Source: an uncultured Gammaproteobacteria bacterium | GTDB lineage: Bacteria > Patescibacteriota > Patescibacteriia > VMEV01 > CAYQCH01 | NCBI GenBank assembly: GCA_964352335.1 | Contig: CAYGRO010000003.1 | Coordinates: 24,798-88,797, forward strand | Length of the DNA stretch: 64,000 nt | Reading direction: 5' to 3' | In this document: piece after piece, positions 35,190-64,000 of the stretch | How positions within the stretch are numbered: the first letter of the stretch is position 1 | Layout of the letters: every line of letters begins with the position of its first letter | The notes under the pieces: generated by a model | What the model saw: the letters and a program-made list of their open reading frames with translations, nothing else | What the model was told of the DNA's origin: nothing | Database searches by the model: none | Translations under genes and position numbers: made by a program

Positions 35190-35230
35190 GCAAGGCCCCC
35201 ACCTCTCAGGAAGATGTGGGGGTTTTGTCT
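35190..35230 (+). terminator. Rho-independent terminator after the giant gene
   Basis: The sequence gcaaggcccccacctctcaggaagatgtgggggttttgtc is a GC hairpin followed by a T-run. Confidence 0.55.
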
Positions 35231-35478
35231 TGGCTCGTCGCCTCACTCGGAGGAAGCTTAAGACTTGCGTCATTGCTAAACGTAACCAAGGCGATACATA
35301 GACCAATGAGAATGAAGACATACCCCCCAGTGATCAGGGGATACTCTCCAGGAAGATCCTTTTCTCCGCCCACGATGAGACAGATAAAGGTTATTAATCC
35401 AACGAGACACCAGATCAGAAAAACGACCATGGTGTAGTACATCTTTTCGTCAGGAATATGAGACTTCTTTTGCGGCAT
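35206..35478 (-). CDS. Small membrane protein (90 aa, two TM helices) at the edge of GC island B
   Basis: ORF with two hydrophobic helices and intermediate GC content. Coding status is uncertain. Confidence 0.3.
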   Translation of the reverse strand: MPQKKSHIPDEKMYYTMVVFLIWCLVGLITFICLIVGGEKDLPGEYPLITGGYVFILIGLCIALVTFSNDASLKLPPSEATSQDKTPTSS

Positions 35479-35605
35479 GTCTAGCTCCTTTGCCTAAACA
35501 AGGTTTACCATACTTTTTTACAAAATGAAACGAGCTAGCAAGACAGTCCGCTCCCGTGAGGGTGCATAATGTCGAGCTAGCTCGTTGTGGGCCAATTACG
35601 CTGGC

Positions 35606-37277: not shown

Positions 37278-37470
37278 GTACACCTCCTAGGTGTTTGAAA
37301 CGTTGTTTGATATGAAAAAAGCACTCGCTAGCAATATGCCAGCAAATACTCTCTCCCCTTCTATTCTCTCATTACAGTGGCGCATTTAAGCGTATAATGA
37401 AAGAATAGATTAAATTACAATAAAAACGGCTTTTTGTCAAGCCATAAAGCCCCTAATAAAATAGCTAATA

Positions 37471-46332: not shown

Positions 46333-46347
46333 GAAATCAAAGGGTCA

Positions 46348-46405
46348 AAGCGTCAGAGCGTCAAAGAAAATAACTTTGTCGCTCTGACGCTTTGACGCAC
46401 TGACC
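46348..46405. repeat. Long near-perfect palindrome (gtcaaagcgtcagagcg tcaaagaaaataactttg tcgctctgacgctttgac) in the sufB-sufC intergenic region
   Basis: Read directly from the sequence. The ~17-bp stem suggests an mRNA processing or stability hairpin, or an intra-operon attenuator. Confidence 0.5.
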
Positions 46406-46413
46406 TCACAACT

Positions 46414-47178
46414 ATGTTACAAATCAAAAATCTCCATATTCAAACAGAAGGAAAAGAAATCCTTAAAGGTCTTGATCTCACAATCAAGGCTGGTGAGGTG
46501 CATGCCATTATGGGACCAAATGGTGCTGGTAAAAGCACATTGGCCTCTGTTCTTGCTGGAAAAGATCAATATGAACTCACAGACGGATCTATTTCTTTTG
46601 AAAACAATGACTTAACAAAGCTTTCTCCGGAAGAACGTTCTTTAGCTGGCATCTTCCTTGCATTCCAATACCCTGTCGAAATCCCAGGAGTGAGTAATCT
46701 TGAATTCTTTAAATCAATTGTAAACCAACATCGTATTCACAGAGGAGAAGATGCTATGGATACATTTCAATTTCAAGCATTCATGAAAGAAAAGCTAGCT
46801 GAATTTGGAATGGACGATAAACTCATGGATAGAAACTTAAACGAAGGATTCTCTGGTGGAGAAAAGAAAAAGAATGAGTTATTACAAATGGCATTACTAA
46901 ATCCAAAGTTAAAAATTCTTGACGAAACAGATTCAGGATTAGATGTAGATGCATTAAAAACAGTTGCAGAAGGTGTGAATAAATTACAATCACCTGAGTC
47001 AGCAACATTAGTGATCACACATTATAATCGTATTCTTGATTACTTGAATATCGATTTCGTACATATTATGGTTGAAGGAAAAATTGTTGCAACGGGTGGA
47101 ATAGAGTTAGCAAAAGAAATTGAAACTGATGGTTATAAAAAGTATCTTCCTAAGAAGCCTTTGACTGTTCTCAATTAA
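46414..47178 (+). CDS. sufC: Fe-S cluster assembly ATPase SufC
   Basis: ABC ATPase Walker A (GPNGAGKST), signature (FSGGEKKK) and Walker B (ILDETDSGLD). Confidence 0.9.
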   Translation: MLQIKNLHIQTEGKEILKGLDLTIKAGEVHAIMGPNGAGKSTLASVLAGKDQYELTDGSISFENNDLTKLSPEERSLAGIFLAFQYPVEIPGVSNLEFFKSIVNQHRIHRGEDAMDTFQFQAFMKEKLAEFGMDDKLMDRNLNEGFSGGEKKKNELLQMALLNPKLKILDETDSGLDVDALKTVAEGVNKLQSPESATLVITHYNRILDYLNIDFVHIMVEGKIVATGGIELAKEIETDGYKKYLPKKPLTVLN

Positions 47179-47179
47179 T

Positions 47180-47851
47180 ATGAAAACAATCGCCGCCAAT
47201 ACAATTGAATCAATGAATCAAACAAAATCTGAGCAAATGGAAATCACCATTGAAGCTGGGGCACGTTTTAATCATGCTTTAATTGGTGGTTGTGGTGACA
47301 TTATTGTGCATGTAAAAAAAGACGCTATCTACTCCCCTTTTCTTTTTTCTAATAAAGAAGATGTTCAAAAAACGAAATTACAAATCAATCTTGCAGAACA
47401 AGGAGCAGAAGTAGACTTAAAGGGATTACTTATCGCTAATGAGAAGCAAACCATCACAAGTGATGTTATCATCTCTCATATCGCAGAACATACAAATAGT
47501 AATCAATACGTAAAAACGATGGCAAATGATGAAGCAATCATCACAGCAGACGCGACTGTTCGTATTGAACGTCATGCAGCTCATTCTTCTGCACATCAAT
47601 TAGCAAAAAATCTTCTTCTGACATCTACGGCTCAAATTCAAACCGAACCTAAGCTTGAGATTGATAATGATGACGTACAAGCAAGCCATGGAACTTCGGT
47701 TGGATCATTAGATCAACAGGCTCTCTTTTACTTGCAAGCTAGAGGGATTGCACAATCTGAAGCGAGAAAACTTCTTACAAAAGCGTTTATTGATGAAATG
47801 CTCAATGAAGTAAAAGACAAAACTATTCTTGATGCCATCAATTATGAATAA
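47180..47851 (+). CDS. sufD: Short SufD-like protein
   Basis: Position between sufC and sufS, with C-terminal similarity to the SufB/D beta-helix. Confidence 0.55.
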   Translation: MKTIAANTIESMNQTKSEQMEITIEAGARFNHALIGGCGDIIVHVKKDAIYSPFLFSNKEDVQKTKLQINLAEQGAEVDLKGLLIANEKQTITSDVIISHIAEHTNSNQYVKTMANDEAIITADATVRIERHAAHSSAHQLAKNLLLTSTAQIQTEPKLEIDNDDVQASHGTSVGSLDQQALFYLQARGIAQSEARKLLTKAFIDEMLNEVKDKTILDAINYE

Positions 47852-49049
47852 CTTTAAAAAACAATTCCCCATTTTTACACAAACCATGAATGATAAACCG
47901 CTCGTGTATCTTGATAGTGCAGCAACAACACAAAAACCTCAGGTTGTGATTGACGCTGTAAGCAATTTTTATACTGAATACAATTCCAATATTCATCGCG
48001 GTGTTTACCAACTAAGTCAAAAAGCGACTGATGCTTATGAAGGAGCACGAAAAACTGTGGCTGAATTCATCAATGCAGAAGAAAATGAAGTAGTCTTTAC
48101 AAAAGGAGCAACAGAAGCAATCAACTTAGTTGCGCAAACCTATGGAAGAATGAATATTGAAGAAGGTGATGAAATATTGCTTACAGAAATGGAACATCAT
48201 GCAAATATTGTTCCCTGGCAAATGCTAGCAGCATCAAAGCAAGCTATCATCAAATACATTCCACTTAAAGATGATGGAAGCTTAGATCTTGCACAGGTTG
48301 ATACTTTACTTACAAAGAAAACAAAGTTTGTTTCTCTCGTATACACATCAAATACACTGGGAACAATCAATGATGTAAAACAAGTCATCGAAGCAGCGCA
48401 TCAAATCGGAGCCCCCGTATTAATCGACGCCTGCCAAACAGCAGCTCATCAAGCAATCGATGTAAAACAACTTGATGCTGACTTCCTTGTATTTTCTGGC
48501 CACAAACTTTATGGACCAACTGGAATTGGTGTTTTGTATGGAAAAAGCACACTACTTGAAGCAATGCCTCCTTATCAAGGTGGTGGTGATATGATTGAGT
48601 CTGTTACTTTGGAGAAAACAACCTTCCGAGAAGCACCTGCGAAGTTTGAAGCAGGTACTCCCAATATCGCAGGAGCTATTGGATTAGGGAAAGCGATTGA
48701 GTTTATTCAAACTATTGGATTCGAATCCATCCACACTCATGAACAAACTTTACTTGAGCATGCAACAAAAGAATTACAAATGGTTGATGGATTAACTGTG
48801 ATTGGAACAGCATCAGAAAAAGCAGCCATCATTTCTTTTATTATCAAAGGAGTTCACCCACATGATATGGGAACAATTCTAGATCAAGAAGGAGTTGCTG
48901 TAAGAACAGGACATCATTGCACACAACCAATCATGCAACGATTCAAGATTCCAGCAACCACTCGAGCCTCATTTGCAATCTACAATACGAAGGAAGACGT
49001 TGATGCATTAGTAAATGGAATTAAGAAAGCACAAGAATTACTTGCGTAA
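47829..49049 (+). CDS. sufS: Cysteine desulfurase SufS
   Basis: PLP-lysine motif (FSGHKLYGPTGIGVLYGK) and the active-site Cys loop (RTGHHCTQP). Confidence 0.9.
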   Translation: MMPSIMNNFKKQFPIFTQTMNDKPLVYLDSAATTQKPQVVIDAVSNFYTEYNSNIHRGVYQLSQKATDAYEGARKTVAEFINAEENEVVFTKGATEAINLVAQTYGRMNIEEGDEILLTEMEHHANIVPWQMLAASKQAIIKYIPLKDDGSLDLAQVDTLLTKKTKFVSLVYTSNTLGTINDVKQVIEAAHQIGAPVLIDACQTAAHQAIDVKQLDADFLVFSGHKLYGPTGIGVLYGKSTLLEAMPPYQGGGDMIESVTLEKTTFREAPAKFEAGTPNIAGAIGLGKAIEFIQTIGFESIHTHEQTLLEHATKELQMVDGLTVIGTASEKAAIISFIIKGVHPHDMGTILDQEGVAVRTGHHCTQPIMQRFKIPATTRASFAIYNTKEDVDALVNGIKKAQELLA

Positions 49050-49151
49050 ACAACACTACTTGTCACTCTGAGCCTGCCGAAGAGTCTCGTCCTTCTCGAT
49101 AAACTCGAAATAGTTTATCGCAAGGGACAAGATGTCTCGGCTCCGCTCGAC

Positions 49152-49622
49152 ATGACAAAGAACATGTTTACCGCTCTAAAAACCACTATGAACTTACAAA
49201 ATCTCTACAAATCATTAATTCTCGATCATAACAAATCTCCACAAAACTTTGGAGAACTTAATGATGCCACACATTCTGCAGAAGGTTATAACCCTTTATG
49301 TGGTGATCATTATTGGGTTGAAATTAAGATGAACGGAGAGATTATTGATGATGTGAAATTTCATGGCGAAGGATGCGCAATTTCAAAAGCCTCTGCTTCT
49401 TTAATGACTTCAACAATCAAAGGGCAAGACAAACCATTTATACAAGCAACAATCAGACAATTTTTAGAAATGATCACAGGAAAAACAGAACAAGCACCAA
49501 GCCAAAGACTCGAAGCATTTAAAGGCGTGAGAGATTTCCCTACACGAACGAAGTGTGCAAGCTTAGCATGGCATGCATTGGAGGCTGCGATGGACAACAA
49601 GAACTCTGCTTCGACTGAATAA
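49152..49622 (+). CDS. sufU: SufU/IscU-type Fe-S scaffold (SufE-like sulfur acceptor)
   Basis: Conserved Cys ligands (NPLCGDHYWV ... GEGCAISKASASLM ... KCASLAWHAL). Confidence 0.8.
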   Translation: MTKNMFTALKTTMNLQNLYKSLILDHNKSPQNFGELNDATHSAEGYNPLCGDHYWVEIKMNGEIIDDVKFHGEGCAISKASASLMTSTIKGQDKPFIQATIRQFLEMITGKTEQAPSQRLEAFKGVRDFPTRTKCASLAWHALEAAMDNKNSASTE

Positions 49623-49815: not shown

Positions 49816-50496
49816 CTAAGCTTGTTTTTTGATGCGTTCTGACGCTTGCTTGAATCGTGGCGAATACAATATTCGCAAAGCACGTTGATAATCCGACTGA
49901 GCAACCGACATAGCGATGTTCAGCAAATCAGCCACCTCAGCGAATGTTCTAAAGTACCCAGCAACATCTAGCCCATGACGAAGTTGTAAAACTTTGTAGG
50001 ACCTAATATGGATACCACGAAGAACATCGAGCGCTCCTTCTTCGAGCAATGTATACAAACGACGTGTTAGCACAACATCATCGTCAGAAACATCACAAGA
50101 GTCAGACCAACCGAATTCTCTGCGAATTCTTTCTGACTTAGTTTGACGAGGATTTTTTTGAATCAATGCCTCGTTTTCTGATGAATCTGTTTCTTTTGCT
50201 ATTCGTCGACTGAGCGAGAGTGCGTTTTCTTGTGTTGTCTGTGACCAATGGCCACTGCACCCTAAATAGCAAATAATTGCCGCAATTTTTGCAGAAATAC
50301 TTGGAGGCTTTACTCCAAATTTTTCTGCAATACGGTTTTGGTTTTGATACTCTTCTTCACCCAAACCATAGTAAATTTTTGTAAACGTCCACCCTTTTGG
50401 GCAATACGTCTTAATTTTTTCTATTCGACTTGAATCTAGTTCAGCCAAATCAAGAAGAAACTGACGCCGGTTATCCCAATCGATACCTTTATACAT
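49816..50496 (-). CDS. HTH protein with two sigma-70 region-4-like domains, transcribed divergently from the surface-protein array
   Basis: The C-terminus LQLRHGLDVAGYFRTFAEVADLLNIAMSVAQSDYQRALRIL fits the sigma-70 r4 pattern. A second, weaker r4-like segment (YYGLGEEEYQNQNRIAEKFGVKPPSISAKIAAI) lies upstream. Confidence 0.45.
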   Translation of the reverse strand: MYKGIDWDNRRQFLLDLAELDSSRIEKIKTYCPKGWTFTKIYYGLGEEEYQNQNRIAEKFGVKPPSISAKIAAIICYLGCSGHWSQTTQENALSLSRRIAKETDSSENEALIQKNPRQTKSERIRREFGWSDSCDVSDDDVVLTRRLYTLLEEGALDVLRGIHIRSYKVLQLRHGLDVAGYFRTFAEVADLLNIAMSVAQSDYQRALRILYSPRFKQASERIKKQA

Positions 50497-50614
50497 GAGT
50501 TCTCCTTTCTTTGAACTGTTTACAAAGATAACAGTAATTTATCCAAAAATCAATCAAAAAATAAGTGTAGAAAAAAATTAGCAGAAAAAGCTTGTTTTTT
50601 GTTATAATAAATTC

Positions 50615-53600
50615 ATGAAAAAGCAGAAAAGAAAAAAAGCTGAGAAAGTAGAACACTATTCGCCATCAAAAAAAGAATTTCATCTTCTTTCTAGCCCAGC
50701 ACCCGCTTTTGTCCATTTTTTCCTTAAAATTGGGCATTTTTTCCATTGGTGCTTTCATCTCTTACTTCCAGACAATTTCAAAGAAGACCCAGGTTTTACA
50801 GACCATGTGAAGCTATTTTTCATGACGCGCCACTATTCCTATTTGCGAAAGTTCTTTGTTGTGTGGATGTTTGTCATTACAACAACAATTGGTGTAACCG
50901 GATATAATATTTATCAAGCCAGAGAATTAGGTGCAGCCAATGCCACATTTCCTTTTGATATTTCTGGAAGTTATACATTCGATTCAGCCAGAGTCAATGT
51001 AACCGGAAGTGAGGCAGTGCTTTTATCTGTTGATCAAATTGACAATGACAATACAGCTACAGGTTTTGCCGGAGGAACATTTTCTGACACAAACTTTGCC
51101 ACCAGCCACGTAGGACTTGATGCAACAGGCCTCACAAATGGAACAGGAACTTTTACTTCACGAATAATAAATGCGGGAGGTTCTGTTGCGTGGAATCAAT
51201 TAGACTGGACCCCAGAAAGACCAATTCAAAAAGAACTTCCAAATAATAGCGGAATTGAATCTGCTTATAGCACAGGTAATATGTCTATGACAGGGAATGT
51301 ACTTTTAATGCATTTAAATGAAACAAGTGGAACCATTACTGATTCTTCTGTGAATGGGAATACTGCAACTGGAACAGGTATTACATATGCAAGCCAAGGT
51401 ATCTTTGGAACCGGAATTGATTTAACCGGAAATGGTGATAAAATTGAATCAAGTGCCTTTAATTATGTTTTTGGAACTGAAATTACACTAGCAGGATGGT
51501 TTCGATTTACCGGCCCAGGAACTGGTTCACCTAGAATTTTAGAAATCTCAAGACTTGGTGATTCAAACACACATGCTCTTGCGCCAGACGGAGATGGTTC
51601 TCTGCGTGCTTGGGCTGTTTGTAATAATGGATCGCGTGTAGGCTCTGCCGACGACCCAACAAACTATAACGACGGCCAATGGCATCATTTTGTTTACACA
51701 TATAGTAATCCAACAGGAATTATTTATGTAGATGGCGTGCAAACAGCTACAGCTTCTAATGCATGTGCAAACTTAGATGACGGGAGTGAGCTGATTTTGG
51801 GTGCAATTTCAGATGTAAGTGGTAACTTTACAAATGCACAACATGAATTTGATGGATACATTGATGAAATGGCTGCATTTAACCGAGCATTAACCCCAAC
51901 AGAGGTTCAAGACATCTATTTACGTGGTGCGTTAAGACAACAAATTCAGGTAAGAACATGTGACGATGCTATTTGTGATACAGAAGTTTTTGTAGGATCA
52001 GACGGAACAAATGGAACTTTTTTTAGTGAGCTTTTAAATTCAACAACTGGATTGCCAAGTCTTGCAATGCCCCTCCCTAATAATCAATACTTTCAATACC
52101 AAGTTACTCTAGAAACAGATGACAATGTCACAAACTCTCGATTGAGTAATGTTACTATTGGCCCAAGCCATTTAGACGGAGGTTCACCAACTATTCAAAA
52201 TACCTCTGGTATTGCTTATACATCATCGTTGGATAGCTTTACAGAAACACTCGGAGGTGGGCATACTGGAACAACAACTTATCAACTTTCCAATAATGGT
52301 GCGAATTTCTATTATTTTAACGGAGGTTCATGGTCTCCAGCTGTGAGTTCTGTTCAATCGAATACAGCTGGAATTATTGGTGCGAATATCACAACATTTG
52401 TAAATGACGTAGGTACAGGTAACTTCTTTTTTCGTGCCTTTTTAGGTTCGAATTTAGGGACACAAGTCATTGAATTAGATCAAATTGAACTAACATTTGA
52501 CACAGGTGGAGGAGGCGGTGGTGGAGGGTCTTCGAAAATCTTTTTTCTCCCCCCCAGCGCACCAGGTGATGGGTTTCAAGTTATCATTAACGAAAAAGCA
52601 GAACAAACAACAGACCAAATTGTAGACCTTACATTTAATGCTGGTAATGAAGTATCGCTTGTAGAGTTATCAAATGAACAAAGTTTTATAGAATCAATTA
52701 CTTTAGGACTAACACCAACTATTGAGTGGGATCTTTGTTCTGTGAGTGGAAAACCTGTTTCTAGAGATTGCCCAGATGGCGAATATACTGTCTATGCAAA
52801 TTTTTTAACATCTTTAGGACAACCTCCATCTCCAATAGTTTCTGACACAATCACATTAGGAGAAGAAGAAGAAGAAGTTGTTGAAGAAGAACCAGTGGTA
52901 ACTGAACCAGAAACCGAAACTGAAGAAACTCCCGATGAAGAAGTCATTATAGAACAAGAACAAAACGAACCTCCTATTACACCAGCCCCCTCTGAACCAG
53001 AAGAAACAACTGAACAACCCGAAGATGAAACTCAAGAACCATCTGTAATCGAGGAAGAGATTGTAGAAGAAAACCAACAAGAACCTACTCCAATTCAACC
53101 TTCACCAGAACAAACACCCCCGCAACCACCTATAAACCAGAACGACCCCACAACCGCTCCGCCTTCAGAAGTAAATGAAGGGCAAATCATTCAAACAGTC
53201 ACACAAGAAATTGGAACAAATAACTATTTACTAACTGTTTCTACAGGAGAAGAACTAGAACAGAATGAAAAAGTATTTGTACAATTTTTGTCTGGAGCTC
53301 TTGCTGGTCAAAGCATTGTTTTAGATGAATACGTTGCAAATGACCAAGAAATTTTCTTTTACACCCCACTCCAAGTAAACCCAAGTCCTGGTGATAAAGT
53401 AAAAGTATCTGGAGGAACTGTGTTTAAGCAAGAAACATTTGTCTCACCAAAAACAGAATCAACTGTTTCAGACTTTAAAGTGTCGGCACCTGAAAAACCT
53501 TCTCTTCTTGCGCTACAAATTGTAATAGCTATTGGCTTGTTTTTAGGCCTGTTTATTCTCTTTTCATTGTGGAAACAAAATACTGCCCTTACAACACTCA

Positions 53601-53653
53601 TTGAACATGAACACGCGAACTTATACCATAAAGGGAAACACGGTAAGCACTAA
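50615..53653 (+). CDS. Large surface protein, paralog 1 of 3 (N-terminal TM, conserved beta domain, LamG/concanavalin-like lectin domain, acidic P/E/T-rich linker, C-terminal domain and C-terminal TM anchor)
   Basis: 1012 aa. LamG signature FDGYIDEMAAFNRALTPTEVQDIYLRG. Gly-run GGGGGGGS. C-terminal helix LLALQIVIAIGLFLGLFILF followed by a basic tail. Confidence 0.6.
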   Translation: MKKQKRKKAEKVEHYSPSKKEFHLLSSPAPAFVHFFLKIGHFFHWCFHLLLPDNFKEDPGFTDHVKLFFMTRHYSYLRKFFVVWMFVITTTIGVTGYNIYQARELGAANATFPFDISGSYTFDSARVNVTGSEAVLLSVDQIDNDNTATGFAGGTFSDTNFATSHVGLDATGLTNGTGTFTSRIINAGGSVAWNQLDWTPERPIQKELPNNSGIESAYSTGNMSMTGNVLLMHLNETSGTITDSSVNGNTATGTGITYASQGIFGTGIDLTGNGDKIESSAFNYVFGTEITLAGWFRFTGPGTGSPRILEISRLGDSNTHALAPDGDGSLRAWAVCNNGSRVGSADDPTNYNDGQWHHFVYTYSNPTGIIYVDGVQTATASNACANLDDGSELILGAISDVSGNFTNAQHEFDGYIDEMAAFNRALTPTEVQDIYLRGALRQQIQVRTCDDAICDTEVFVGSDGTNGTFFSELLNSTTGLPSLAMPLPNNQYFQYQVTLETDDNVTNSRLSNVTIGPSHLDGGSPTIQNTSGIAYTSSLDSFTETLGGGHTGTTTYQLSNNGANFYYFNGGSWSPAVSSVQSNTAGIIGANITTFVNDVGTGNFFFRAFLGSNLGTQVIELDQIELTFDTGGGGGGGGSSKIFFLPPSAPGDGFQVIINEKAEQTTDQIVDLTFNAGNEVSLVELSNEQSFIESITLGLTPTIEWDLCSVSGKPVSRDCPDGEYTVYANFLTSLGQPPSPIVSDTITLGEEEEEVVEEEPVVTEPETETEETPDEEVIIEQEQNEPPITPAPSEPEETTEQPEDETQEPSVIEEEIVEENQQEPTPIQPSPEQTPPQPPINQNDPTTAPPSEVNEGQIIQTVTQEIGTNNYLLTVSTGEELEQNEKVFVQFLSGALAGQSIVLDEYVANDQEIFFYTPLQVNPSPGDKVKVSGGTVFKQETFVSPKTESTVSDFKVSAPEKPSLLALQIVIAIGLFLGLFILFSLWKQNTALTTLIEHEHANLYHKGKHGKH

Positions 53654-56600
53654 TTGTATATGAAGAAAAAACATCATAGACCAAATCATAACCACCCTGT
53701 CATTGCCTTTTTACTAAAGACAAGTCATTTTTTTCATTGGTCTTTTCATGTTTTACTTCCCGACTTTATCTCAAAAGTACCTAGTGCCAAATTAAACAGG
53801 CTTCTTTTCTTAAAAACTCGTTACTTTTCTAAGATGAGAACTCTTGTTATCGGGTGGCTTATTATGAGCATTAGTATTTTAAGTGTCACAGGATATCAAT
53901 TTGCAAAAGCTCCAATCATAAAAGCAGCCAATACTACCTTCCCTTTTGACCTAGCAGGAAACTATACTTTTGACACAGACAGAATAGCAATTGGATCAAG
54001 TCTTGCAACGCTTCCGTCGGTCGACCAAATAGATGACGACAATACTGCTACGGGTTTTGCAGGAGGGACGTTTAGTGACACCGCGTTTTCTGGAGGCTTC
54101 TTGCAATTAGACGCAACTGGACTTACAAATACCACAGGGCTTTTTACTTCAAGAGTTATAGACGCAGGTGGTGACGTAGCATGGTCGTCAGTGGACTGGA
54201 CACCTCAACGCCCCTATCAAAAAGATCTTCCCGACTCAGGATCAGCTGAAACGGCGTATACTGCTGGGAATATCGACATGAATGGTAATCTTGCATTACT
54301 TCATGCAGACGAAACAGCTGGTGCAACAACGATTCTAGATTCATCTGGTAATGCGAATAACTTCTCTTGTACTACTTGCCCTGCTTCTGGAGGAACGGGC
54401 CGATTCAATACAACCCTAGAATTCAATGGAGGCGAAACACTTGAGGACGCAGATGGAGAAACCTATTTAAACGGGCTTACTGCATTCTCATTGGGTTTTT
54501 GGGTCAAATCCGATGTCGTTGGAACTGACAGAGGCTTTTTTATCGGAACAGCCCCAAGTGGAAGTGATGACGGACTTACTATTCGTTACGACGATGCGGG
54601 CGCAAACGGAGGAGGAAATGATGTCATTAAAGCAGGAATAACAACAACCACAGGAACAACACAAGTCGAAAGCTCTACAAATATTCAAACAACAGACTGG
54701 CAACATATTGTTCTCACATGGACCTCTGGCAGTGCTTTATCACTGTATGTAAACGGCCAACTGGACACACCAACCAGTGCAGGAGCGACCGTAGGAGGAG
54801 CCATTAGCACATTAGACCGAGCAATACTTGGGAGAGGTGGAAAAGACACAGCAGCAGGAGCCGGGTGGTTAGGACTAATCGATGAATTCTCGGTTTTTGA
54901 TAGGGCACTCGCCCCAGCAGAAATTTCTGATCATTATCTTCGGGGTGCGACAAGACTTGGAATTCAAGTTCGTTCTTGTGACGATGCAATTTGTGACATA
55001 GAACCATTTATTGGTCCAGACGGAACAGCAAGCACCTTTTACGGTGAAGGCTTAAATACAACAAATGCACTCCCAAGCACAACGACACTTTCTTCTATCG
55101 TAAACAACCGTTACTTTCAGTATCAAATAGTATTAGACTCAGATGATTCGATTACAACACCTCAATCTTCTTCATTTTCTTTTGCCCCATCTCATTTAGA
55201 TGCAGGTGGCCCAACTATTCAAAATGCAACAGGAATAACATATCAAACAATCGATGGATTTGTAGAAACTCTTGGGGGAGGAAATACTGGCACAACAAGA
55301 TACCAAGTCTCAAATAATGGAACAAATTTTTATTACTTTAATGGATTAAATTGGGTAACGGCTCTCTCTGCTGCACAAAGTAATCCTGCTGGTGTTATTA
55401 ATAGTAATGCAACAACCATTGCAACTGATATTGGAACTGGAGACTTCTTTTTTCGAGCTTTTCTAAATTCAGCACTCGGACAACAAATTGTAGAACTAGA
55501 TGAAATTGAAGTTATTTTTGACACAAGCTCAAATAATAACGGGGGTGGTGGTAGCTCATTACTCTTCTTTAGCCAACCAGTCCCCCCAACCAATGGATTT
55601 GCATTAACAATAAACGAAGAAGCAACAGTAACAGAATCACCTCTTGTTTCATTAGGTTTTAATGCTGGCTCAGATATTTCCCTTGTTGAAATTTCTAATG
55701 AACCAAATTTTTTAGAATCAATTACATTAACCTACTCAAATCCACTTTCTTGGAATCTCTGCTCCTCTAAAGGAGAAGCACAAACTGAATGTATAGATGG
55801 TGAATACACCGTTTATGCAAAATTCTATAAATCATTTGGTCAAGCCCCTTCGGTCGTTGTTCAGGATACTATTGCCCTTCTCTCCCTCGAGAACATAGAT
55901 GCTATTGATAAAAACACTGAAGAGGAAAACCCTACTGAAGAAAAATTATCACCAATTGAAATCCCCGAAGACAATACACCACCAACAGAAGAACCTCTCA
56001 TTGTTGATGCTGAAAACCAAGAAGAAAATGAAACCATTCTCTCTCCCCCATCAGAAATAGTTGAACAAGAACAAAAGAAAGAACAGGAATTATTACAACC
56101 AGAGTCTACACAAGAAAAAGAATTAAATCTTCCCACCTCACCACAAACGCCTTCGGAACAACCAAGCCAACCAATTCCTCAAAAGACTCAAACTCTGCCT
56201 CAAACACAAGTTGTACAACAAGTATCACAAGAAATTGGCACTTCTAACTTTTTGATTAGTACAACATTACCTGCTGGGTTTGATGAAAACGAATCTTTTG
56301 TTATTTCTTTTACCTCTGGTGCCCTTGCTGGTCAAAGCGTGCTTATTGATAAATATGTAGCAAATGACCAAGGTATTCTTCTTTTTACAGAGCTTAAAAC
56401 CTCACCAACTATTGGAGATTTGTTTCAGCTCTTTTCTGGAAGATTTTATGAAGAAAAAACATTTGTCTCTCCACAACTTCCCCCCTCTTCACCTGTTATA
56501 ATTCAATATGACAGCTTTACTGACCAAAGATCATTTTTCTGGTTTCTCTTTGGGTTGCTTATTGTAACTATCACAGGTTTTGGACTCCTTGTACTTGTGC

Positions 56601-56692
56601 TCTTCCGATTATGGAAACAAAACACAACGCTTACAACACTCATCGAAGCTGAGCACAAAGAATTGTTTATGAAGAAAAGAAAGCGTAAATAA
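53654..56692 (+). CDS. Large surface protein, paralog 2 of 3
   Basis: 1012 aa, colinear with paralog 1 (TFPFDLAGNYTFD...VDQIDDDNTATGFAGGTFSDT...; LIDEFSVFDRALAPAEISDHYLRG). The linker and C-terminus are divergent. Confidence 0.6.
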   Translation: MYMKKKHHRPNHNHPVIAFLLKTSHFFHWSFHVLLPDFISKVPSAKLNRLLFLKTRYFSKMRTLVIGWLIMSISILSVTGYQFAKAPIIKAANTTFPFDLAGNYTFDTDRIAIGSSLATLPSVDQIDDDNTATGFAGGTFSDTAFSGGFLQLDATGLTNTTGLFTSRVIDAGGDVAWSSVDWTPQRPYQKDLPDSGSAETAYTAGNIDMNGNLALLHADETAGATTILDSSGNANNFSCTTCPASGGTGRFNTTLEFNGGETLEDADGETYLNGLTAFSLGFWVKSDVVGTDRGFFIGTAPSGSDDGLTIRYDDAGANGGGNDVIKAGITTTTGTTQVESSTNIQTTDWQHIVLTWTSGSALSLYVNGQLDTPTSAGATVGGAISTLDRAILGRGGKDTAAGAGWLGLIDEFSVFDRALAPAEISDHYLRGATRLGIQVRSCDDAICDIEPFIGPDGTASTFYGEGLNTTNALPSTTTLSSIVNNRYFQYQIVLDSDDSITTPQSSSFSFAPSHLDAGGPTIQNATGITYQTIDGFVETLGGGNTGTTRYQVSNNGTNFYYFNGLNWVTALSAAQSNPAGVINSNATTIATDIGTGDFFFRAFLNSALGQQIVELDEIEVIFDTSSNNNGGGGSSLLFFSQPVPPTNGFALTINEEATVTESPLVSLGFNAGSDISLVEISNEPNFLESITLTYSNPLSWNLCSSKGEAQTECIDGEYTVYAKFYKSFGQAPSVVVQDTIALLSLENIDAIDKNTEEENPTEEKLSPIEIPEDNTPPTEEPLIVDAENQEENETILSPPSEIVEQEQKKEQELLQPESTQEKELNLPTSPQTPSEQPSQPIPQKTQTLPQTQVVQQVSQEIGTSNFLISTTLPAGFDENESFVISFTSGALAGQSVLIDKYVANDQGILLFTELKTSPTIGDLFQLFSGRFYEEKTFVSPQLPPSSPVIIQYDSFTDQRSFFWFLFGLLIVTITGFGLLVLVLFRLWKQNTTLTTLIEAEHKELFMKKRKRK

Positions 56693-56697
56693 TTTCT

Positions 56698-59600
56698 ATG
56701 AAGAATAGTAATCATCATAAAAATGCTTATAAACAAATCATTCAACTAAAGAATGGTGTTCTTAAATATCTTTTACTTTTTCTTCATTTTGTTCAATGGT
56801 CTATACATCTACTTATTCCAGATGAAATCACAGATATCCCTAGTCTTAAAAAAGCCTGGGAAATTGTAAAAACACATCAAAGATTTTACAGGCTACGCTA
56901 TGCATTCGGAACACTCGTACTTCTTACTGCAGTACTTGGTTCATCTGCTTTTTATAGCTTAAAAACGAGTCCTCTCCTTTTAGCAGCTGCAACAACTTTT
57001 CCGTTTACTGTACCAGCAAATTACACCTTCTCCGCAACTGCTATTAGTCTAAATGCAGGGATAGCATCTCTTATTGCTATTGATCAAATTGACGATGATA
57101 ATACAGCTACAGGATTTGCTGGTGGTACATTTTCAGATACAGAATTTTCACTCACAAACTTACAACTAGATGCTACTGGTATTACAAATGGAACAGGTAT
57201 GTTTACTTCTCGAGTCATAGACGCTGGAAGCTCTGTTGCATGGTCTACCTTTAATTGGACACCACAAGCCCCCTACCATAAAGAACTCCCAGACAATGCA
57301 GCCATAGAAACAAACTACACAAATAGAAATGTTTCTATGGTAAATAATGAATTACTCCTTCATTTAAATGAATCAGGTGGCGCAGTAAGTTTTGCAGATA
57401 CTTCTGGAAATGCTGCAAATGGTAGTTGCGCAGATTGCCCTACACAAACAAATGGTCAATTTAACAATGCATTTGAATTTGATGGAGCTACAAATGAAAT
57501 AGAACTACCAAACTCAGTCTTAAACGGAAGCGGTGATTCTAGTATTGCACTTTGGTTTCGAACAGCAAATACGGGCCAACAAGCAATTATTAGTGGAGCA
57601 AATGGATCAAATGACAATGAATACCTTCTCTTTCTTCCAAATCAAACTACTATTGCCTTTTATACAGGAGAAAGCTCAGGAGGAAACACAACTTGGGCTG
57701 TACCGTCTATGGCAGACAATAACTGGCACCATCTCGTACTCACAAGAGATGATTTAAACAATCAAGTATCTGCTTATTTTGATGGATCATTACTTTCTAC
57801 ACAAGGCACCACAATTAACCCTGTTTCAATAGACCTTGGCGGCTTATTTCTTGGGCAAGAGCAAGATTCTGTTGGGGGCGGGTTTACTCCAACACAAGCT
57901 TTTGAAGGCGATATGGATGAAGTAGCTATTTTTTCTCGTGTACTCACCGCATCAGATGTAACCGCTATCTATGAAAGAACATTTCACGATATCCGCTTTC
58001 AACTACGTTCTTGCGACGACTCACTTTGTGATACAGAACTATTTATTGGCCCAGATGGCACAGCTGGAACTTTTTATGACGAATTAGGAAATGCAACTAT
58101 AAACCTACCTTCACAAACTATTACAAATCTTTCAGATAATCGATATTTTCAGTATCAAGCAACACTTACATCTTCAGACAATATTCAAACACCACAAGTG
58201 TCTTCAATTTCTGTAGGCCCTACTCATTTTGATGCAAGCACTCCCTCTATTACTCCATTAACAGGGATTCCATACACTTCACTTACAGGGTTTACAGAAA
58301 CTTTGGGCGGAGGAAATGTAGGAACAGTTCAATACCAAATTTCTAATGACAATGTAACCTATTATTATCATAATGGAGCCAACTGGGTTTCTGCGATTAA
58401 TTCAGCACAAAGTAATACTGCATTAGGCGTGAATGCTCAAATTTCAAGCTTTGTTTCAGACATTGGCACTGGTGACTTCTATTTTAGAGCATTCTTTTTC
58501 TCAACAAACGGAGTTCAGCAAGTTGAGTTAGATGAAGTAAGTATTAGTTTTGAAAATGACCCGGGTAATGGTGGAAACGGAGGAGGCTCTTTCATCTTCT
58601 TAGCTCTCCCTCCAACACCTCCAGCAGAAGGATTTAAGGTTTTGATAAATGAAGACAATGAATTTGCAGAATCTCAAAATGTCACGCTTTCTTTTAATGC
58701 AGGTTCTGACATTAAACTAGTAGAGCTTTCTAATGAAGAAACAATGACTGAGTCTACAACTATTAGCTATAAAGAGGAACTTGCGTGGGACCTTTGTTCA
58801 ATTCGTGGTGAAACACAAAATTCAGTTTGTGAAACAGGAGAAAAAACTGTCTACGCTCGTTTTTCAAAAGGTTTTGGATCTACTCCTTCAGATGTTGTTA
58901 GTGACACCATTATTTTAAATCAAAATGTTGGAACTCCTGTTGAAACACCAAAAGAAACTATAAATGAATCAGAAACAAATCAAACAGAAGAAGAAGACTT
59001 AAATAGCGAAACACCAACGGAAAATACAACCAAAACAACAGAGGAACAGCAAGAATCAACAGAAACTTCTGATGAAACACCCTCTACAGAACAAGTAGAA
59101 ACAGAAATACCTGTAGAAACAACTGAACCGACTCCACCCTCTGCTGAGGAAAATATCAGTCAACAACCTTCACCAACTCTAGAAACAAAACAAGAAACGA
59201 CAGAACCTCTGGTGGCAGAACAGCCCGAAACAGACCAACAACTTCAAGTAACACCAAATGGTATTTTACTAACCTCTTCTATTCCCCCTGGTCCTCTAGG
59301 TCAATCAACTATTCCAACAACTCTCACAGAACCATATGCTGGTTACTACAATGGAGCATTTATTATCTTTACTTCTGGAGATGTTGTAGGACAAATGGCT
59401 CAAATAGAAAAATTTGTAGACGGTCAATTCTTCTTTACTCCCCCATTATCTATTACACCTTCTGTAAATGATCAATTCACAATTACCATTCCATTACAAA
59501 CAGAAGACACAACAATGGTTTCCTCAAATAGTTCTGATCTTCAAGGAATAGCAACAATTTTCCGAGATCTTGTCTATCCAAGAGACCTCATTAGAACAAT

Positions 59601-59733
59601 CTTTTGGGCTGGTGTCTTTATTGGAGCAGGAGTAGCAATTATTCTAACGAGAATCCTTATGATTCTCTGGCAACACCACATGCTCACACATCATGCAACA
59701 AGCATTCCAAAACGCAAAAACAAAAAAACTTGA
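56698..59733 (+). CDS. Large surface protein, paralog 3 of 3
   Basis: 1011 aa, colinear with paralogs 1 and 2 (TFPFTVPANYTFS...IDQIDDDNTATGFAGGTFSDT...; GDMDEVAIFSRVLTASDVTAIYERT). Confidence 0.6.
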   Translation: MKNSNHHKNAYKQIIQLKNGVLKYLLLFLHFVQWSIHLLIPDEITDIPSLKKAWEIVKTHQRFYRLRYAFGTLVLLTAVLGSSAFYSLKTSPLLLAAATTFPFTVPANYTFSATAISLNAGIASLIAIDQIDDDNTATGFAGGTFSDTEFSLTNLQLDATGITNGTGMFTSRVIDAGSSVAWSTFNWTPQAPYHKELPDNAAIETNYTNRNVSMVNNELLLHLNESGGAVSFADTSGNAANGSCADCPTQTNGQFNNAFEFDGATNEIELPNSVLNGSGDSSIALWFRTANTGQQAIISGANGSNDNEYLLFLPNQTTIAFYTGESSGGNTTWAVPSMADNNWHHLVLTRDDLNNQVSAYFDGSLLSTQGTTINPVSIDLGGLFLGQEQDSVGGGFTPTQAFEGDMDEVAIFSRVLTASDVTAIYERTFHDIRFQLRSCDDSLCDTELFIGPDGTAGTFYDELGNATINLPSQTITNLSDNRYFQYQATLTSSDNIQTPQVSSISVGPTHFDASTPSITPLTGIPYTSLTGFTETLGGGNVGTVQYQISNDNVTYYYHNGANWVSAINSAQSNTALGVNAQISSFVSDIGTGDFYFRAFFFSTNGVQQVELDEVSISFENDPGNGGNGGGSFIFLALPPTPPAEGFKVLINEDNEFAESQNVTLSFNAGSDIKLVELSNEETMTESTTISYKEELAWDLCSIRGETQNSVCETGEKTVYARFSKGFGSTPSDVVSDTIILNQNVGTPVETPKETINESETNQTEEEDLNSETPTENTTKTTEEQQESTETSDETPSTEQVETEIPVETTEPTPPSAEENISQQPSPTLETKQETTEPLVAEQPETDQQLQVTPNGILLTSSIPPGPLGQSTIPTTLTEPYAGYYNGAFIIFTSGDVVGQMAQIEKFVDGQFFFTPPLSITPSVNDQFTITIPLQTEDTTMVSSNSSDLQGIATIFRDLVYPRDLIRTIFWAGVFIGAGVAIILTRILMILWQHHMLTHHATSIPKRKNKKT

Positions 59734-59776
59734 TAGATCTCTATCAAGTTTTTTTTAACTTCAAAGTCCCCGCTCT

Positions 59777-59923
59777 TTATTTCAAAAGCCCAGCAAGCCC
59801 CAAAAGCACAAAAGCAATACCACTAATCATTGGTGGATTAATAGCACCTTTTCCAAAAGTCACGATCATATAAAGACCTAGAAGTAATGTGATTACGTAG
59901 AGGACTGATTTGAATGGTTTCAT
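59777..59923 (-). CDS. Possible 48-aa two-TM micro-protein
   Basis: My own translation reads MKPFKSVLYVITLLLGLYMIVTFGKGAINPPMISGIAFVLLGLAGLLK. It is below the ORF-track cutoff. Confidence 0.2.
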   Translation of the reverse strand: MKPFKSVLYVITLLLGLYMIVTFGKGAINPPMISGIAFVLLGLAGLLK

Positions 59924-59989: not shown

Positions 59990-60075
59990 TGGTTCCCAGA
60001 CAGGGATTCGAACTCCGATTCCATGGACCAGCCCTCCTTCGCTGAAGATTCGTAGGACAAGAACCATAAAATAAA
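59990..60075 (-). pseudogene. tRNA-like element whose 3' ~42 nt (through an encoded CCA) are near-identical to the 3' half of the adjacent tRNA-Gln; no canonical 5' half could be folded
   Basis: The minus-sense sequence ctggtccatggaatcggagttcgaatccctgtctgggaacca matches ctggtccatagaatcggggttcgaatcctcgtctcggaa of the tRNA-Gln. The T-arm is intact, but the 5' acceptor strand needed to pair with TCTGGGA is absent. Confidence 0.35.
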
Positions 60076-60086
60076 CAGTCACTCTG

Positions 60087-60157
60087 TTCCGAGACGAGGA
60101 TTCGAACCCCGATTCTATGGACCAGAACCATATGTCCTACCATTAGACGATCTCGGA
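60087..60157 (-). tRNA. tRNA-Gln (anticodon CUG)
   Basis: Manual fold: acceptor TCCGAGA/TCTCGGA, D-stem GTCT/GGAC with loop AATGGTA, anticodon stem TATGG/CCATA with loop TTCTGGT (anticodon CTG), variable loop GAAT, T-arm CGGGG-TTCGAAT-CCTCG, discriminator A. CCA is not encoded. Confidence 0.7.
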
Positions 60158-62185: not shown

Positions 62186-62824
62186 CTAAATCTCTTCAAA
62201 AGGGTCATTCCCATCGGCAGAGCCAATAATATTGTCGACAGCAGCCCAAGCGCTTTGACCACCGGGAGGAGTTAAAATAATAACTTCATCCCCTGCTTTT
62301 CCATGATAATAGGTTACAGAAGCTAATAAAACTTTATATAATTTTTTATCTACCAATACTCGAAATTCTCCTGTTTCTTTATCTTTGACTAAACTTCCAC
62401 GTAAACGATCTCGATCAATTGGTTTGATTTGTTTATAAATAAAAGCTCCATCATTTGCAATGGTAAGCTTAAGCAAATCACCTTCTACTAATTTAGACTT
62501 AGAAGCATAATTTGCAGGAATAGAATACTTTTTTCCATCTGGCCCAATCATTTGGTAACCATCAAAAACACCTTCGATAATACTTCCTTCATCACCAGTA
62601 CTTTCATCTGGAGTCATTTGGAACCGATCCATATCTTCATCCGTCATTTCCATTTTTCCATTTTCCATATCACGAACCATAGCCTCGACATTGGCGAGAC
62701 TTTGTTTCATTTGATCTAAAATTTTATGGACTGCTTTTAGTTTTGCATCCTCCATAGTTTTTGTTTTGCGTTTTGTTTTATTTTTGCGCAACTTTTTACT
62801 TCTATCTACACTAAATTGTAACAA
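62186..62824 (-). CDS. Hypothetical conserved protein (212 aa; acidic N-terminal half, beta-rich C-terminal half)
   Basis: ORF only. The true start may be the internal MEDAKLKAV. Confidence 0.35.
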   Translation of the reverse strand: MLQFSVDRSKKLRKNKTKRKTKTMEDAKLKAVHKILDQMKQSLANVEAMVRDMENGKMEMTDEDMDRFQMTPDESTGDEGSIIEGVFDGYQMIGPDGKKYSIPANYASKSKLVEGDLLKLTIANDGAFIYKQIKPIDRDRLRGSLVKDKETGEFRVLVDKKLYKVLLASVTYYHGKAGDEVIILTPPGGQSAWAAVDNIIGSADGNDPFEEI

Positions 62825-62904
62825 TGTTTGTCAAATTGTGGAAGTGGATAACGGAAAAACAATTGACAGTTGACCTTTGACTACTGACAACACCGCATCT
62901 TGTC

Positions 62905-62947
62905 ATTCCCGCCCCGCATCAAGTGCGGGATAAACTCCGGCGGGAAT
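62905..62947. repeat. Nested GC-rich palindrome (attcccgcc ccgcatcaagtgcggg ... ggcgggaat)
   Basis: Read directly from the sequence. Confidence 0.4.
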
Positions 62948-63228
62948 CTAGAGGATAGATAAGAAATTATTTTATAATCCTGAACAAACCTTTGTATTCT
63001 TCATACCAGAAGTAGTCGGTACTCCCCAAATCGTAAGTCCTTTCAAAGCAAGTTCGTGATGAGACAAACAAAGCTGTTGATTTTTTTCTGTCAAAGGGAA
63101 AAAGTGATAATAGATGCCCCAAGTAATAGGAGGAGTTAACCAAAATAAACAACAACAAACAAATAATGCTATTGGGACACAAATTATGATAAAGATACTT
63201 TTTATCAGTTTCATACAGGTTTTCTTTC

Positions 63229-63280
63229 ACCTCTCCTCCCTGCCAAGGGGGAGATGCCCGATAGGACAGAGGGGGTATTC
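63229..63280. repeat. GC-rich palindromic repeat copy (cacctctcctccctgccaagggggagatg ... agagggggtattc)
   Basis: ctcc/ggag-type arms as in the other family members. It overlaps weak small ORFs. Confidence 0.4.
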
Positions 63281-64000
63281 TACAAATCATCAAAAGGACT
63301 TCTAGCTTTTGGTTTCGCTAATTTTACTTTTACCCGATCTCGAATTTCATTTTCTACTTCCATACGAGGCTTACCGTATTTAAGTCGTGATAATTCTGCA
63401 ATGGCTTGTTGAATTTCTAAATTATGCCCCTCATCTAATGGCAATCCTTTCATGCTAAATGGTTTAAGCGTTTGGTTTTGTACCAACAGTTTAACGTAAC
63501 TTGTATATTGCTCCACGTTTAAGACATCATATTCATTAAAGACAGGGGCAAATTCTTTGGCGAATGTTTCGGCATCTTCTACACCAATTTTAAACGCACA
63601 AATAGTACCAACGTTTCCAAAGACAGCATCTTTGATTTCTGAATCTCCATTTTCTACTAATTGCCCAACATATTGATGCGCAATAACTAAATTGAGTAAA
63701 TACTTACGAGCTTCAGATAAAATAATGGCAATAGAATCTGTTGTGAAGTTTTGGAATTCATCGATATATAAATAAAAATCTTTTCTATCCGCTTTTGGCT
63801 GGTCGGTTCTACTTAAAGCAGACATCAAGATCTTCCCTACAATAACCATCCCTAAAAGATGGGCATTTAATTCCCCAATTTTTCCTTTTGATAATTTAAC
63901 CAAAAGGATTTTTTGTGAGTCCATTAATTCTCTAAAGTTAAACGCACTTTTTTGCTGACCAATAATTGGTCGCATAACGTCATTGGCAACGAATTGATTT
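63280..64000 (-). CDS. C-terminal part of a P-loop NTPase (VirD4/TraG- or HerA/FtsK-like ATPase); the N-terminus lies beyond the window end
   Basis: Walker-B-like YIDEFQNF, followed by a conserved AHQ segment. The reading frame stays open upstream of the first Met to position 64000. Confidence 0.35.
   Translation of the reverse strand, partial: NQFVANDVMRPIIGQQKSAFNFRELMDSQKILLVKLSKGKIGELNAHLLGMVIVGKILMSALSRTDQPKADRKDFYLYIDEFQNFTTDSIAIILSEARKYLLNLVIAHQYVGQLVENGDSEIKDAVFGNVGTICAFKIGVEDAETFAKEFAPVFNEYDVLNVEQYTSYVKLLVQNQTLKPFSMKGLPLDEGHNLEIQQAIAELSRLKYGKPRMEVENEIRDRVKVKLAKPKARSPFDDL

Follow-up and report, generated by a model that had tools for sequence, protein, structure and literature searches.

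What do three similar proteins with a laminin G-like (LamG) domain do side by side? This question is raised by a locus on contig CAYGRO010000003.1, of which a stretch of 64,000 nucleotides (nt), referred to as the window, was analysed. The window has a G+C content of ~35–38% and is most likely part of the chromosome of a Patescibacteria (candidate phyla radiation, CPR) bacterium, probably an ultra-small one. Judged by its alignments, the array is one scaffold with three LamG subtypes. We hold with a little more than even confidence that the three genes are co-transcribed and encode Sec-exported type I surface proteins, with three LamG heads on that scaffold, which are likely ligand-binding. 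The three genes, all open reading frames (ORFs), are listed with their lengths in amino acids (aa).

50615–53653, + strand: paralog 1, 1012 aa, ATG start
53660–56692, + strand: paralog 2, 1010 aa from ATG 53660; the ORF opens at TTG 53654 (53654–56692, 1012 aa)
56698–59733, + strand: paralog 3, 1011 aa, ATG start

The likely start of paralog 2 is ATG 53660, because the database copy of this protein (P0001) has 1010 aa. Read directly from the junctions, the stop codons of paralogs 1 and 2 are TAA at 53651–53653 and 56690–56692, which leaves intergenic gaps of 6 nt (genes 1/2) and 5 nt (genes 2/3). The original prediction gave a spacing of 0–5 nt; this stands for the second junction, and for the first if TTG is used (0 nt), but not for the 6 nt measured from ATG 53660. 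In a full-length MAFFT alignment paralogs 2 and 3 are 45% and 37% identical to paralog 1, respectively, with 300+ invariant columns. These columns include HF.W..H.L.PD, TFPF, DQID.DNTATGFAGGTFSDT, LDATG.TN, R.CDD..CD.E, a Gly run, SG...GQ and the C-terminal transmembrane (TM) segment. All motifs quoted in the original prediction are present in this alignment which, with the ORF list and translations, bears out a tandem array of three paralogs.

The modules of paralog 1, with selected equivalents in paralogs 2 and 3, are as follows.

50615–53653, + strand: whole of paralog 1, in the order putative extended signal peptide, N-domain, LamG, Cys module, middle domain, Gly run, Ig-like domain, acidic linker, small beta module, TM, basic tail
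50615–50935, + strand: N-terminal module (residues 1–107), with a basic start, the HFFHWCFHLLLPD motif, a basic stretch, the hydrophobic h-region or TM1 (81–99) and a putative signal-peptidase site LGAA↓N
50936–51400, + strand: N-domain (108–262), beta-rich, with an invariant DQIDxDN acidic loop
51401–51925, + strand: LamG/ConA-like jelly roll, subtype 1 (263–437), assigned by Pfam
51926–52510, + strand: Cys module (R[ST]CDDxxCD) and middle beta domain (438–632)
52532–52858, + strand: post-Gly Ig-like beta-sandwich (640–748) with a conserved Cys pair
52859–53209, + strand: acidic E/P/T/Q linker (749–865), net charge −38
53210–53464, + strand: small beta module "Cmod" (F.SG..GQ...Y....P..GD)
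53504–53650, + strand: C-terminal TM (964–982), LWKQN juxtamembrane motif and basic tail
54401–54943, + strand: paralog 2 LamG, subtype 2
~55886–56227, + strand: paralog 2 linker, equivalent to that of paralog 1
56546–56602, + strand: paralog 2 C-terminal TM
57457–57978, + strand: paralog 3 LamG, subtype 3, pentraxin-like (Pfam Pentaxin, 62 bits)
~58921–59295, + strand: paralog 3 linker, equivalent to that of paralog 1
59611–59667, + strand: paralog 3 C-terminal TM

Kyte-Doolittle profiles of paralogs 1–3 contain one N-proximal hydrophobic segment each (residues 81–99, 63–81 and 70–88), preceded by a K/R-rich stretch, and a strong C-terminal hydrophobic segment (964–982, 965–983 and 972–990) followed by a basic tail. 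The signal or anchor segment, the C-terminal TM with its basic tail and the conserved Cys pairs agree with the extracytoplasmic location proposed earlier. Acidic low-complexity linkers had also been described and are present in all three proteins, spanning 106–117 aa, rich in E/P/T/Q and with a net charge of −20 to −38.

The LamG assignment is secure. Laminin_G_3 (PF13385) matches all three proteins at 74.9, 70.4 and 84.9 bits (E 1e-19 to 8e-24), above the gathering cutoff of 27.6, and overlapping members of the clan match as well, such as Pentaxin on paralog 3. In AlphaFold2 (AF2) models the domain is a 13–14-stranded jelly roll that can be superposed on solved LamG/ConA-like domains. The full-length model of paralog 2, built from an untrimmed alignment, has a mean predicted local distance difference test (pLDDT) score of 58. 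It resolves LamG and the post-Gly domain, the latter a seven-strand sandwich at residues 641–750 with pLDDT 73–90, while the linker falls below 50 and long helices are predicted at both termini. Modelling residues 85–640 of paralog 2 from a trimmed 20-sequence alignment gave a pLDDT of 83.8 and a predicted TM-score (pTM) of 0.79, and the N-domain consists of beta strands with pLDDT mostly 85–95.

Outside LamG, Pfam searches up to E 10 gave no match except a weak one to Phage_BR0599 in Cmod (E 0.006), and the sole NCBIfam match on the three proteins is a far-sub-threshold hit to TafC over LamG. A PDB profile search with the whole cassette matched over the LamG part only, best to the S-layer-domain protein 4qvs (E 3e-21), and repeating it with the N-domain alone again found only LamG, leaving the N-domain without a Pfam or PDB relative. 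Searching BFVD led to LamG-type phage fibre proteins. A local hidden Markov model (HMM) of the post-Gly domain matches nine other family proteins. The N-domain, Cys module, middle domain and small C-terminal module are thus beta-rich but without family assignment.

The paralogs differ most in LamG. Identity among them is 51–58% in the N-domain, 46–54% in the Cys module, 50–63% in the middle domain and 49–53% in the post-Gly domain, compared with 27–35% in the linker and 25–27% in LamG, the lowest of all modules. In a sliding window the deepest trough, below the linker, covers paralog 1 residues ~240–400 (8–30%). The earlier picture of conserved cores joined by hypervariable linkers is therefore not upheld, as LamG varies more than the linker does.

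The origin of this pattern was examined by BLASTP of each module against ~180 collected family proteins. For the N-domain the paralogs are mutual best matches (55–61%), as are paralogs 1 and 2 for the Cys and middle segment; in paralog 3 several foreign proteins (46–51% identity) slightly outscore its paralogs (50–55%) over this segment. The LamG of paralog 1 is nearest to P0170, P0053 and P0073 (58–63%), that of paralog 2 to P0005, P0009 (a Planctomycetota PA14 protein) and P0013 (47–49%), and that of paralog 3 to P0049 (51%). In this set the paralogs' own LamGs are absent from each other's top matches. Since the LamGs are nearest to foreign LamGs and the scaffold mostly to the paralogs, the proteins are read as one scaffold bearing three LamG subtypes. 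The mosaic is consistent with module exchange at the LamG position, or with ancient subtypes that were kept while the scaffold co-evolved. Other inserts occur at this position among relatives: LamG is interrupted by propeller-like repeats in P0003, P0004 and P0088, whereas L017 has an unrecognised insert of ~290 aa.

Diversifying selection, which the original prediction suggested, finds no support in the per-domain ratios of nonsynonymous to synonymous change (dN/dS), none of which exceeds 1 in any segment. As the proportion of synonymous differences (pS) among the paralogs is 0.56–0.85, synonymous sites are saturated and dN/dS on three sequences is uninformative. The longest nucleotide stretch common to paralogs is 72 nt at 76% identity, which rules out gene conversion and recent duplication. 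No tandem repeat arrays were found in the three linkers, ruling out repeat-driven linker variation and phase variation.

Relatives place the array within a wider family. An exhaustive profile search returned 169,954 proteins, mostly via LamG. Profile positions ~100–626, covering the N-domain, LamG, Cys module and middle domain, recur as one block in many proteins, and some giants of up to 7,000 aa contain it more than once. The N-domain/LamG/Cys cassette follows lipoprotein signals, ordinary signals, simple anchors or type IV prepilin N-termini, the last of these (PF07963) in P0007 and P0183. Its occurrence behind several kinds of N-terminus therefore identifies it as an extracytoplasmic display cassette.

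The N-terminal motif of the window proteins also occurs in P0062, P0074, P0081, P0082, P0088, P0113, P0177, P0179 and P0180. The N-terminal module, aligned and scanned against GTDB representatives and JGI metagenomes, yielded 40 loci. L001–L011 are 10 GTDB loci and a Staskawiczbacteria contig, and the 30 further loci are metagenome contigs without a taxon label. Five GTDB loci carry the N-terminal module and are assigned to the Patescibacteria group, the Parcubacteria group or Candidatus Falkowbacteria, plus one titled "bacterium". Four more match over the N-domain/LamG only (one Patescibacteria group, two Saccharibacteria, one Omnitrophota), and one partial relative protein is annotated as Candidatus Staskawiczbacteria. 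The same collections scanned with the three-paralog alignment gave no relative, the window motifs being too divergent for the pattern step. An HMM of the N-terminal module built from the three paralogs does match Patescibacteria, Parcubacteria and Falkowbacteria proteins at E 1e-13 to 1e-16, and a Cmod HMM matches relatives, including Falkowbacteria and other Patescibacteria, at E 1e-7 to 1e-11.

Three elements form the chassis of this family. Next to the N-terminal module there is Cmod (F.SG.L.GQ...Y......L.P.L...P..GD.F.I), which sits between passenger and anchor in L004, L005, L008, L013, L016, L019, L020, L023, L025 and L032. The third is a C-terminal TM with GFGLL followed by [LM]W[KR][HQ][QN], which reads LWKQN in paralogs 1 and 2, LWQHH in paralog 3 and MWRHQ or MWKHQ in relatives. 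The window proteins have all three elements, none of which is represented by a Pfam or NCBIfam model. Both ends of the chassis, the N-terminal module and the TM with MW[RK]HQ, are found together in L002, L004, L005, L008, L015, L016, L019 and L032. In L004, L005, L008, L013, L015, L019, L020 and L032 the TM (…GGIQTFATWGIIL…MWRHQ) is followed by 176–312 further residues. Pfam SH3_3 was found at this C-terminal end in all three relatives tested (L004, L005, L008); by predicted topology the end would be cytoplasmic, which is unusual for SH3b.

The passengers of the chassis are unrelated to each other. They comprise the LamG cassette, MG2 domains (L008, L005), FISUMP (L021–L025, L027) and at least two further unrecognised types. 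The FISUMP proteins (L021–L025, L027; P0184–P0193), of ~380 aa and assigned by TIGR02145 (E 2e-35)/PF09603, carry the extended N-terminal module; a local HMM scan detected no C-terminal TM module in them, no separate hydropathy check having been made. In L023 and L025 the ORF after the FISUMP gene encodes a stalk protein that starts with an ordinary signal peptide and contains the small beta module. The FISUMP proteins and these stalk proteins indicate that the N- and C-terminal modules are separable. On this comparison one member of a so far undescribed Patescibacteria-type family of surface proteins has been triplicated at the locus, in a lineage-specific way. Chassis genes in tandem were seen in one other case, L006 (JAUYLZ010000001.1, 1–2804), with two genes, of which the first ORF ends in …MWRYQ… and a basic tail and the next starts with the N-terminal module 31 nt on.

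The nature of the N-terminal module was addressed with 36 distinct copies from Patescibacteria metagenome-assembled genomes and unclassified metagenome contigs, in an ungapped alignment that starts at the invariant P of PDF. Positions 1–27 (PDFLIGHPNLWDNLKTLRKHPQFKPLR) are near-invariant and basic, positions 28–48 are hydrophobic, positions 51–52 are A-[P/V], position 54 (−3) is I, S, T or V, and position 56 (−1) is Ala in 33 of the modules. Conservation collapses after position 56, where at least five unrelated passenger types start. The window copies are divergent, with LLPDF/N/E in place of the LVPDFLIGHPNLWDNL of relatives. At the junction they read LGAA↓N in paralog 1, IKA↓A or KAA↓N in paralog 2 and LAAA↓T in paralog 3, so that the (−3,−1) pattern of paralogs 1 and 3 is acceptable and that of paralog 2 (IIKAA) imperfect.

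An n-h-c layout combined with the (−3,−1) rule is typical of Sec signals that signal peptidase I removes. The module is probably a cleavable Sec signal peptide of this type in extended form, and its removal appears roughly twice as probable as its retention. The N-terminal TM of the original prediction is thus found as a hydrophobic segment, but the column pattern of the 36 modules suggests that it is probably the h-region of a cleavable signal and not a permanent anchor. In regular-expression scans of the three paralogs, no YSIRK, KxYKxGKxW, lipoprotein or Tat motif was found in the N-terminal 120 residues and no LPxTG anywhere, and the N-terminal 104 aa have no Pfam or NCBIfam match. The C-terminal element is not a sortase-type signal, because LPXTG is missing and because of the long extension that follows the TM in relatives.

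A further, tentative proposal, which we consider possible but rather doubtful, is that a dedicated factor recognises the module (…HFLKWAIKLLVPDFLIGHPNLWDNLKTLRKHPQFKPLR, h-region and A-x-A) as a sorting signal specific to Patescibacteria, comparable to YSIRK or accessory-Sec signals. Together with the Cmod / GGIQTF-TM / MWRHQ stalk-anchor the module would form a lineage-wide "plug-in" display system for interchangeable heads (LamG subtypes, FISUMP, MG2), in which the array would be a small host- or ligand-recognition repertoire.

Under the favoured reading, signal peptidase I probably removes an N-terminal module of ~90–107 aa, made up of a basic start, an amphipathic motif ending in L-L-P-D, a basic stretch, the h-region and an Ala site. 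The mature product would be a type I membrane protein with a ~520-aa head at its free N-terminal end, in which the N-domain with its acidic DQIDDDN loop is joined by the LamG/ConA-like jelly roll, a Cys module of the disulfide type and another beta domain. The Ig-like domain would come next, then a ~110-aa acidic Pro/Glu/Thr/Gln spacer, probably extended as a stalk, and the small beta module, with the C-terminal TM helix and short basic cytoplasmic tail as the anchor. Surface exposure is suggested by the signal, by the conserved Cys pairs and by other proteins in which prepilin or lipoprotein N-termini precede this cassette. That ligands are bound is suggested by the nearest solved structures, which are non-catalytic binding modules. 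As three LamG subtypes share one scaffold, three ligand specificities are the most plausible outcome; the array would offer these on a common stalk, the ligands probably being glycans of a host or partner cell, or polymers. By analogy we infer that the proteins may act as adhesins or in host interaction. Lectin/concanavalin-type proteins of CPR bacteria are proposed attachment factors (PMC12911398), and the same hypothesis exists for lectin-type proteins of DPANN (PMC9563170).

Several points weigh against this reading. Most relatives have one gene per locus and the triple array is not conserved. LamG folds also serve non-lectin roles, and the PF13385 domains are without a conserved binding-site signature. 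Cleavage is deduced from a single line of evidence, the (−3,−1) pattern, and the site of paralog 2 departs from it. Furthermore, the h-region of ~19–21 residues is long enough for a stable TM, and an uncleaved module would leave the head beside the membrane, which is a poor fit to an adhesin.

Retention of the N-terminal segment is the basis of an alternative in which these are doubly anchored envelope proteins. The ectodomain would then form a ~870-aa loop near the membrane, in which LamG binds the cell's own wall or surface glycopolymers and so organises or senses the envelope. We consider this unlikely, although the length of the hydrophobic segment (Kyte-Doolittle 1.5–1.7) would allow it, the n-region is larger than usual for a signal alone and shows strong conservation, and AF2 predicts long helices at both ends. 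The co-occurrence of the N-terminal module and the C-terminal TM/MW[RK]HQ in many relatives also fits, as both would face the cytoplasm and could interact. However, the junction agrees very well with the signal-peptidase I rule: 33/36 modules have Ala at −1, the residue at −3 is small or aliphatic, and −5/−6 is taken by a helix breaker. Moreover, the ~380-aa FISUMP proteins carry the module with no C-terminal TM module detected in the local HMM scan, none having been looked for separately, and the stalk proteins of L023 and L025 have a C-terminal TM behind an ordinary signal peptide.

The head itself could instead belong to surface-tethered polysaccharide-processing enzymes or nutrient-capture binding modules with no role in cell–cell attachment, as CPR-associated ConA-like genes may aid polymer use (PMC12911398). 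This is improbable given that no glycoside hydrolase or lyase Pfam match was found at any threshold, that the top structural matches are non-catalytic binding modules and that no catalytic domain accompanies LamG in the three proteins. The conserved IDE/MDE triplet is part of the last LamG strand motif (G.IDE..I.NRAL) and not the ExDxxE of GH16. Pilus-associated adhesins, in the form of modular minor pilins built into type IV pili, come to mind since these pili are the main known attachment organelles of Saccharibacteria and the object of experimental work (10.1101/2024.11.25.624915). The lectin module of S. sanguinis PilC is also a structural match, and in P0007 and P0183 a prepilin N-terminus precedes the cassette. 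As the three proteins lack a class III signal (G↓[FM]TLxE) and a PF07963 match, the reading as a pilus subunit is rejected and given hardly any weight; they also have a C-terminal TM and cytoplasmic tail, unlike pilins, and the window contains no pilus genes.

With exported, ligand-binding surface proteins as the preferred reading, the window proteins can be compared with known systems. Gram-positive surface proteins with a YSIRK-G/S or KxYKxGKxW signal and LPXTG have a conserved motif in the n-region of an extended Sec signal, followed by a passenger that varies, a stalk of low complexity and, at the C-terminus, a hydrophobic segment and basic tail. The window proteins share this logic without any sequence relationship and without YSIRK, KxYKxGKxW or LPXTG, and their C-terminal element is a true TM, unlike the LPXTG sorting signal. 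The modular type IV pilin PilC of S. sanguinis (PDB 7oa7/7oa8) bears a grafted LamG lectin module, whereas the window proteins are not pilins. Likeness to the lectin-like HCN domain of clostridial neurotoxin/NTNH, to pentraxins, to CBM40 and to AbnA domain 4 is limited to the ~180-aa jelly roll at 13–21% identity; the window proteins have no toxin, sialidase or GH43 domains. TafC (NF052521; PMC11821415), the LamG subunit of haloarchaeal Tat-fimbriae, is a surface-appendage protein with the same fold. The window proteins fall outside this family, scoring 25.8–29.6 bits against a cutoff of 410 over the LamG part only, and have no twin-arginine signal.

The closest parallel is with the LamG/ConA-like surface proteins of CPR and DPANN (PMC12911398; PMC9563170). 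Like the window proteins, these are large, secreted or membrane-bound, carry PF13385 and come from small-genome, presumably episymbiotic organisms; in both cases the function is putative. The general kind, LamG-bearing surface proteins thought to mediate attachment, is thus already known. As far as the literature search extended, the papers on them describe neither the specific multi-module cassette of the window proteins nor their export and anchor chassis, nor an array of three genes with different LamG subtypes; no publication on this chassis was found in that search. What is new is LamG as the most divergent and exchangeable module, a chassis of a conserved, probable extended signal peptide and a stalk/anchor with unrelated passengers, and several unassigned beta modules.

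How CPR/Patescibacteria recognise and hold partner cells is little understood beyond type IV pili. The locus adds an alignable multi-domain head cassette with LamG as its exchangeable part, and the three heads on one scaffold are a natural set for comparative binding work. The probable extended signal peptide and stalk/anchor, both conserved and common to unrelated passengers across Parcubacteria-type lineages, could be used for mining surface proteomes and hint at a dedicated export or sorting route. Should the function prove to be routine upkeep of the envelope, the gain would be confined to annotation, as several modules have no Pfam or NCBIfam model.

Expression of the array was considered from two elements at its ends.

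50600–50608, + strand: TGnTATAAT, an extended −10-like sequence read directly, which ends 6 nt before the paralog 1 ATG
59722–59755, no strand assigned: palindromic hairpin with a 15-bp stem and flanking A and T runs, overlapping the paralog 3 stop codon

The position of TGnTATAAT suggests a possible leaderless or very-short-leader transcript, although a promoter consensus scan did not exceed its shuffled controls. The hairpin is the sole strong one and is likely a terminator that closes the three-gene unit. Because the gaps are 5–6 nt, a hairpin ends the array and TGnTATAAT precedes the first ATG, the arrangement suggests that the three genes form one transcription unit, possibly leaderless. 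At the first junction, 53652–53678, which includes the start of paralog 2 (AATTGTATATGAAGAAAAAACATCATA), resembles 56661–56687 at 81% over 27 nt. The latter codes for the last residues of paralog 2 (…ELFMKKRKRK), and the likeness may be the trace of a duplication junction absorbed into the tail of this gene.

Upstream of the array lie a gene for a helix-turn-helix (HTH) protein and an operon.

49816–50496, − strand: divergent HTH protein, 226 aa, with C-terminal residues 136–214 sigma-70 region-4-like
44893–49622: SUF operon sufB, C, D, S, U

The HTH gene had been described as divergent and just upstream, as is indeed the case, with two sigma-70 region-4-like domains. One of these stands, as residues 136–214 match SigA in the PDB at E 0.003, but the second, N-terminal HTH is a faint match only. 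Pfam region-4 matches reach 12.6–13 bits against cutoffs of 24–26 (E ~0.1) and NCBIfam matches are also below cutoff; with no region 2 present, the protein falls outside the sigma-70 family. No HTH homolog was found in L001–L011 or elsewhere in the window, a check that did not extend to the 30 metagenome loci. Conserved linkage of the HTH gene to the array is rejected, as no homolog lies beside the L001–L011 relatives. A regulatory link from the HTH gene to the array is at most a possibility.

The array is surrounded by housekeeping genes. Downstream lie tRNA-Gln and dnaX, and further off in the window are genes for SecA, MurB, FtsW, MurD, enolase, GAPDH, HisRS, EF-Ts, LexA and DinB. These neighbours (SUF operon, dnaX, tRNA-Gln, SecA, Mur genes) rule out a prophage or tail-fibre origin. 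Within the SUF operon, the SufD-like gene (47180–47851, + strand) is short, encoding 223 aa with the core domain only, and overlaps the sufS start by 23 nt. Between the terminator and the tRNA, a small ORF (59777–59923, − strand) encodes a hydrophobic product of 48 aa with two helices predicted by eye. The stretch 59993–60060 (− strand) resembles the 3′ half of the adjacent tRNA-Gln at 60086–60157 (TGGTTCCCAGACAGGGATTCGAAC…). This segment is not called as a tRNA by ARAGORN or Rfam, and may be a tRNA remnant or disrupted copy.

More distant parts of the window hold further features. In the murB/ftsW/murD cluster a single 832-aa ORF (21790–24288, − strand) fuses MurG (Glyco_transf_28 N, C) to a MurC-type ligase (Mur_ligase, _M, _C). 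At ~34000–38000 lies a G+C-rich island of 0.45–0.51 against a background of ~0.35, which spans the end of a gene for a 1199-aa secreted coiled-coil protein (31571–35170, + strand) and a 572-aa ORF with a weak Big_2 match (35606–37324, − strand). The + strand mirror ORF of the latter looks like a non-coding frame. The island possibly consists of acquired surface-protein genes; the ORF at 31571–35170 was considered as a further member of the array family and is unrelated. At the window edge, 63280–63975 (− strand) encodes the C-terminal part of a TraG/VirD4-type coupling protein (TraG-D_C, TrwB_AAD_bind; phrog_5156, E 2e-27), with unannotated small ORFs beside it at 62186–63293. This part may belong to the monoderm-type type IV secretion system described for Patescibacteria (PMC12102498).

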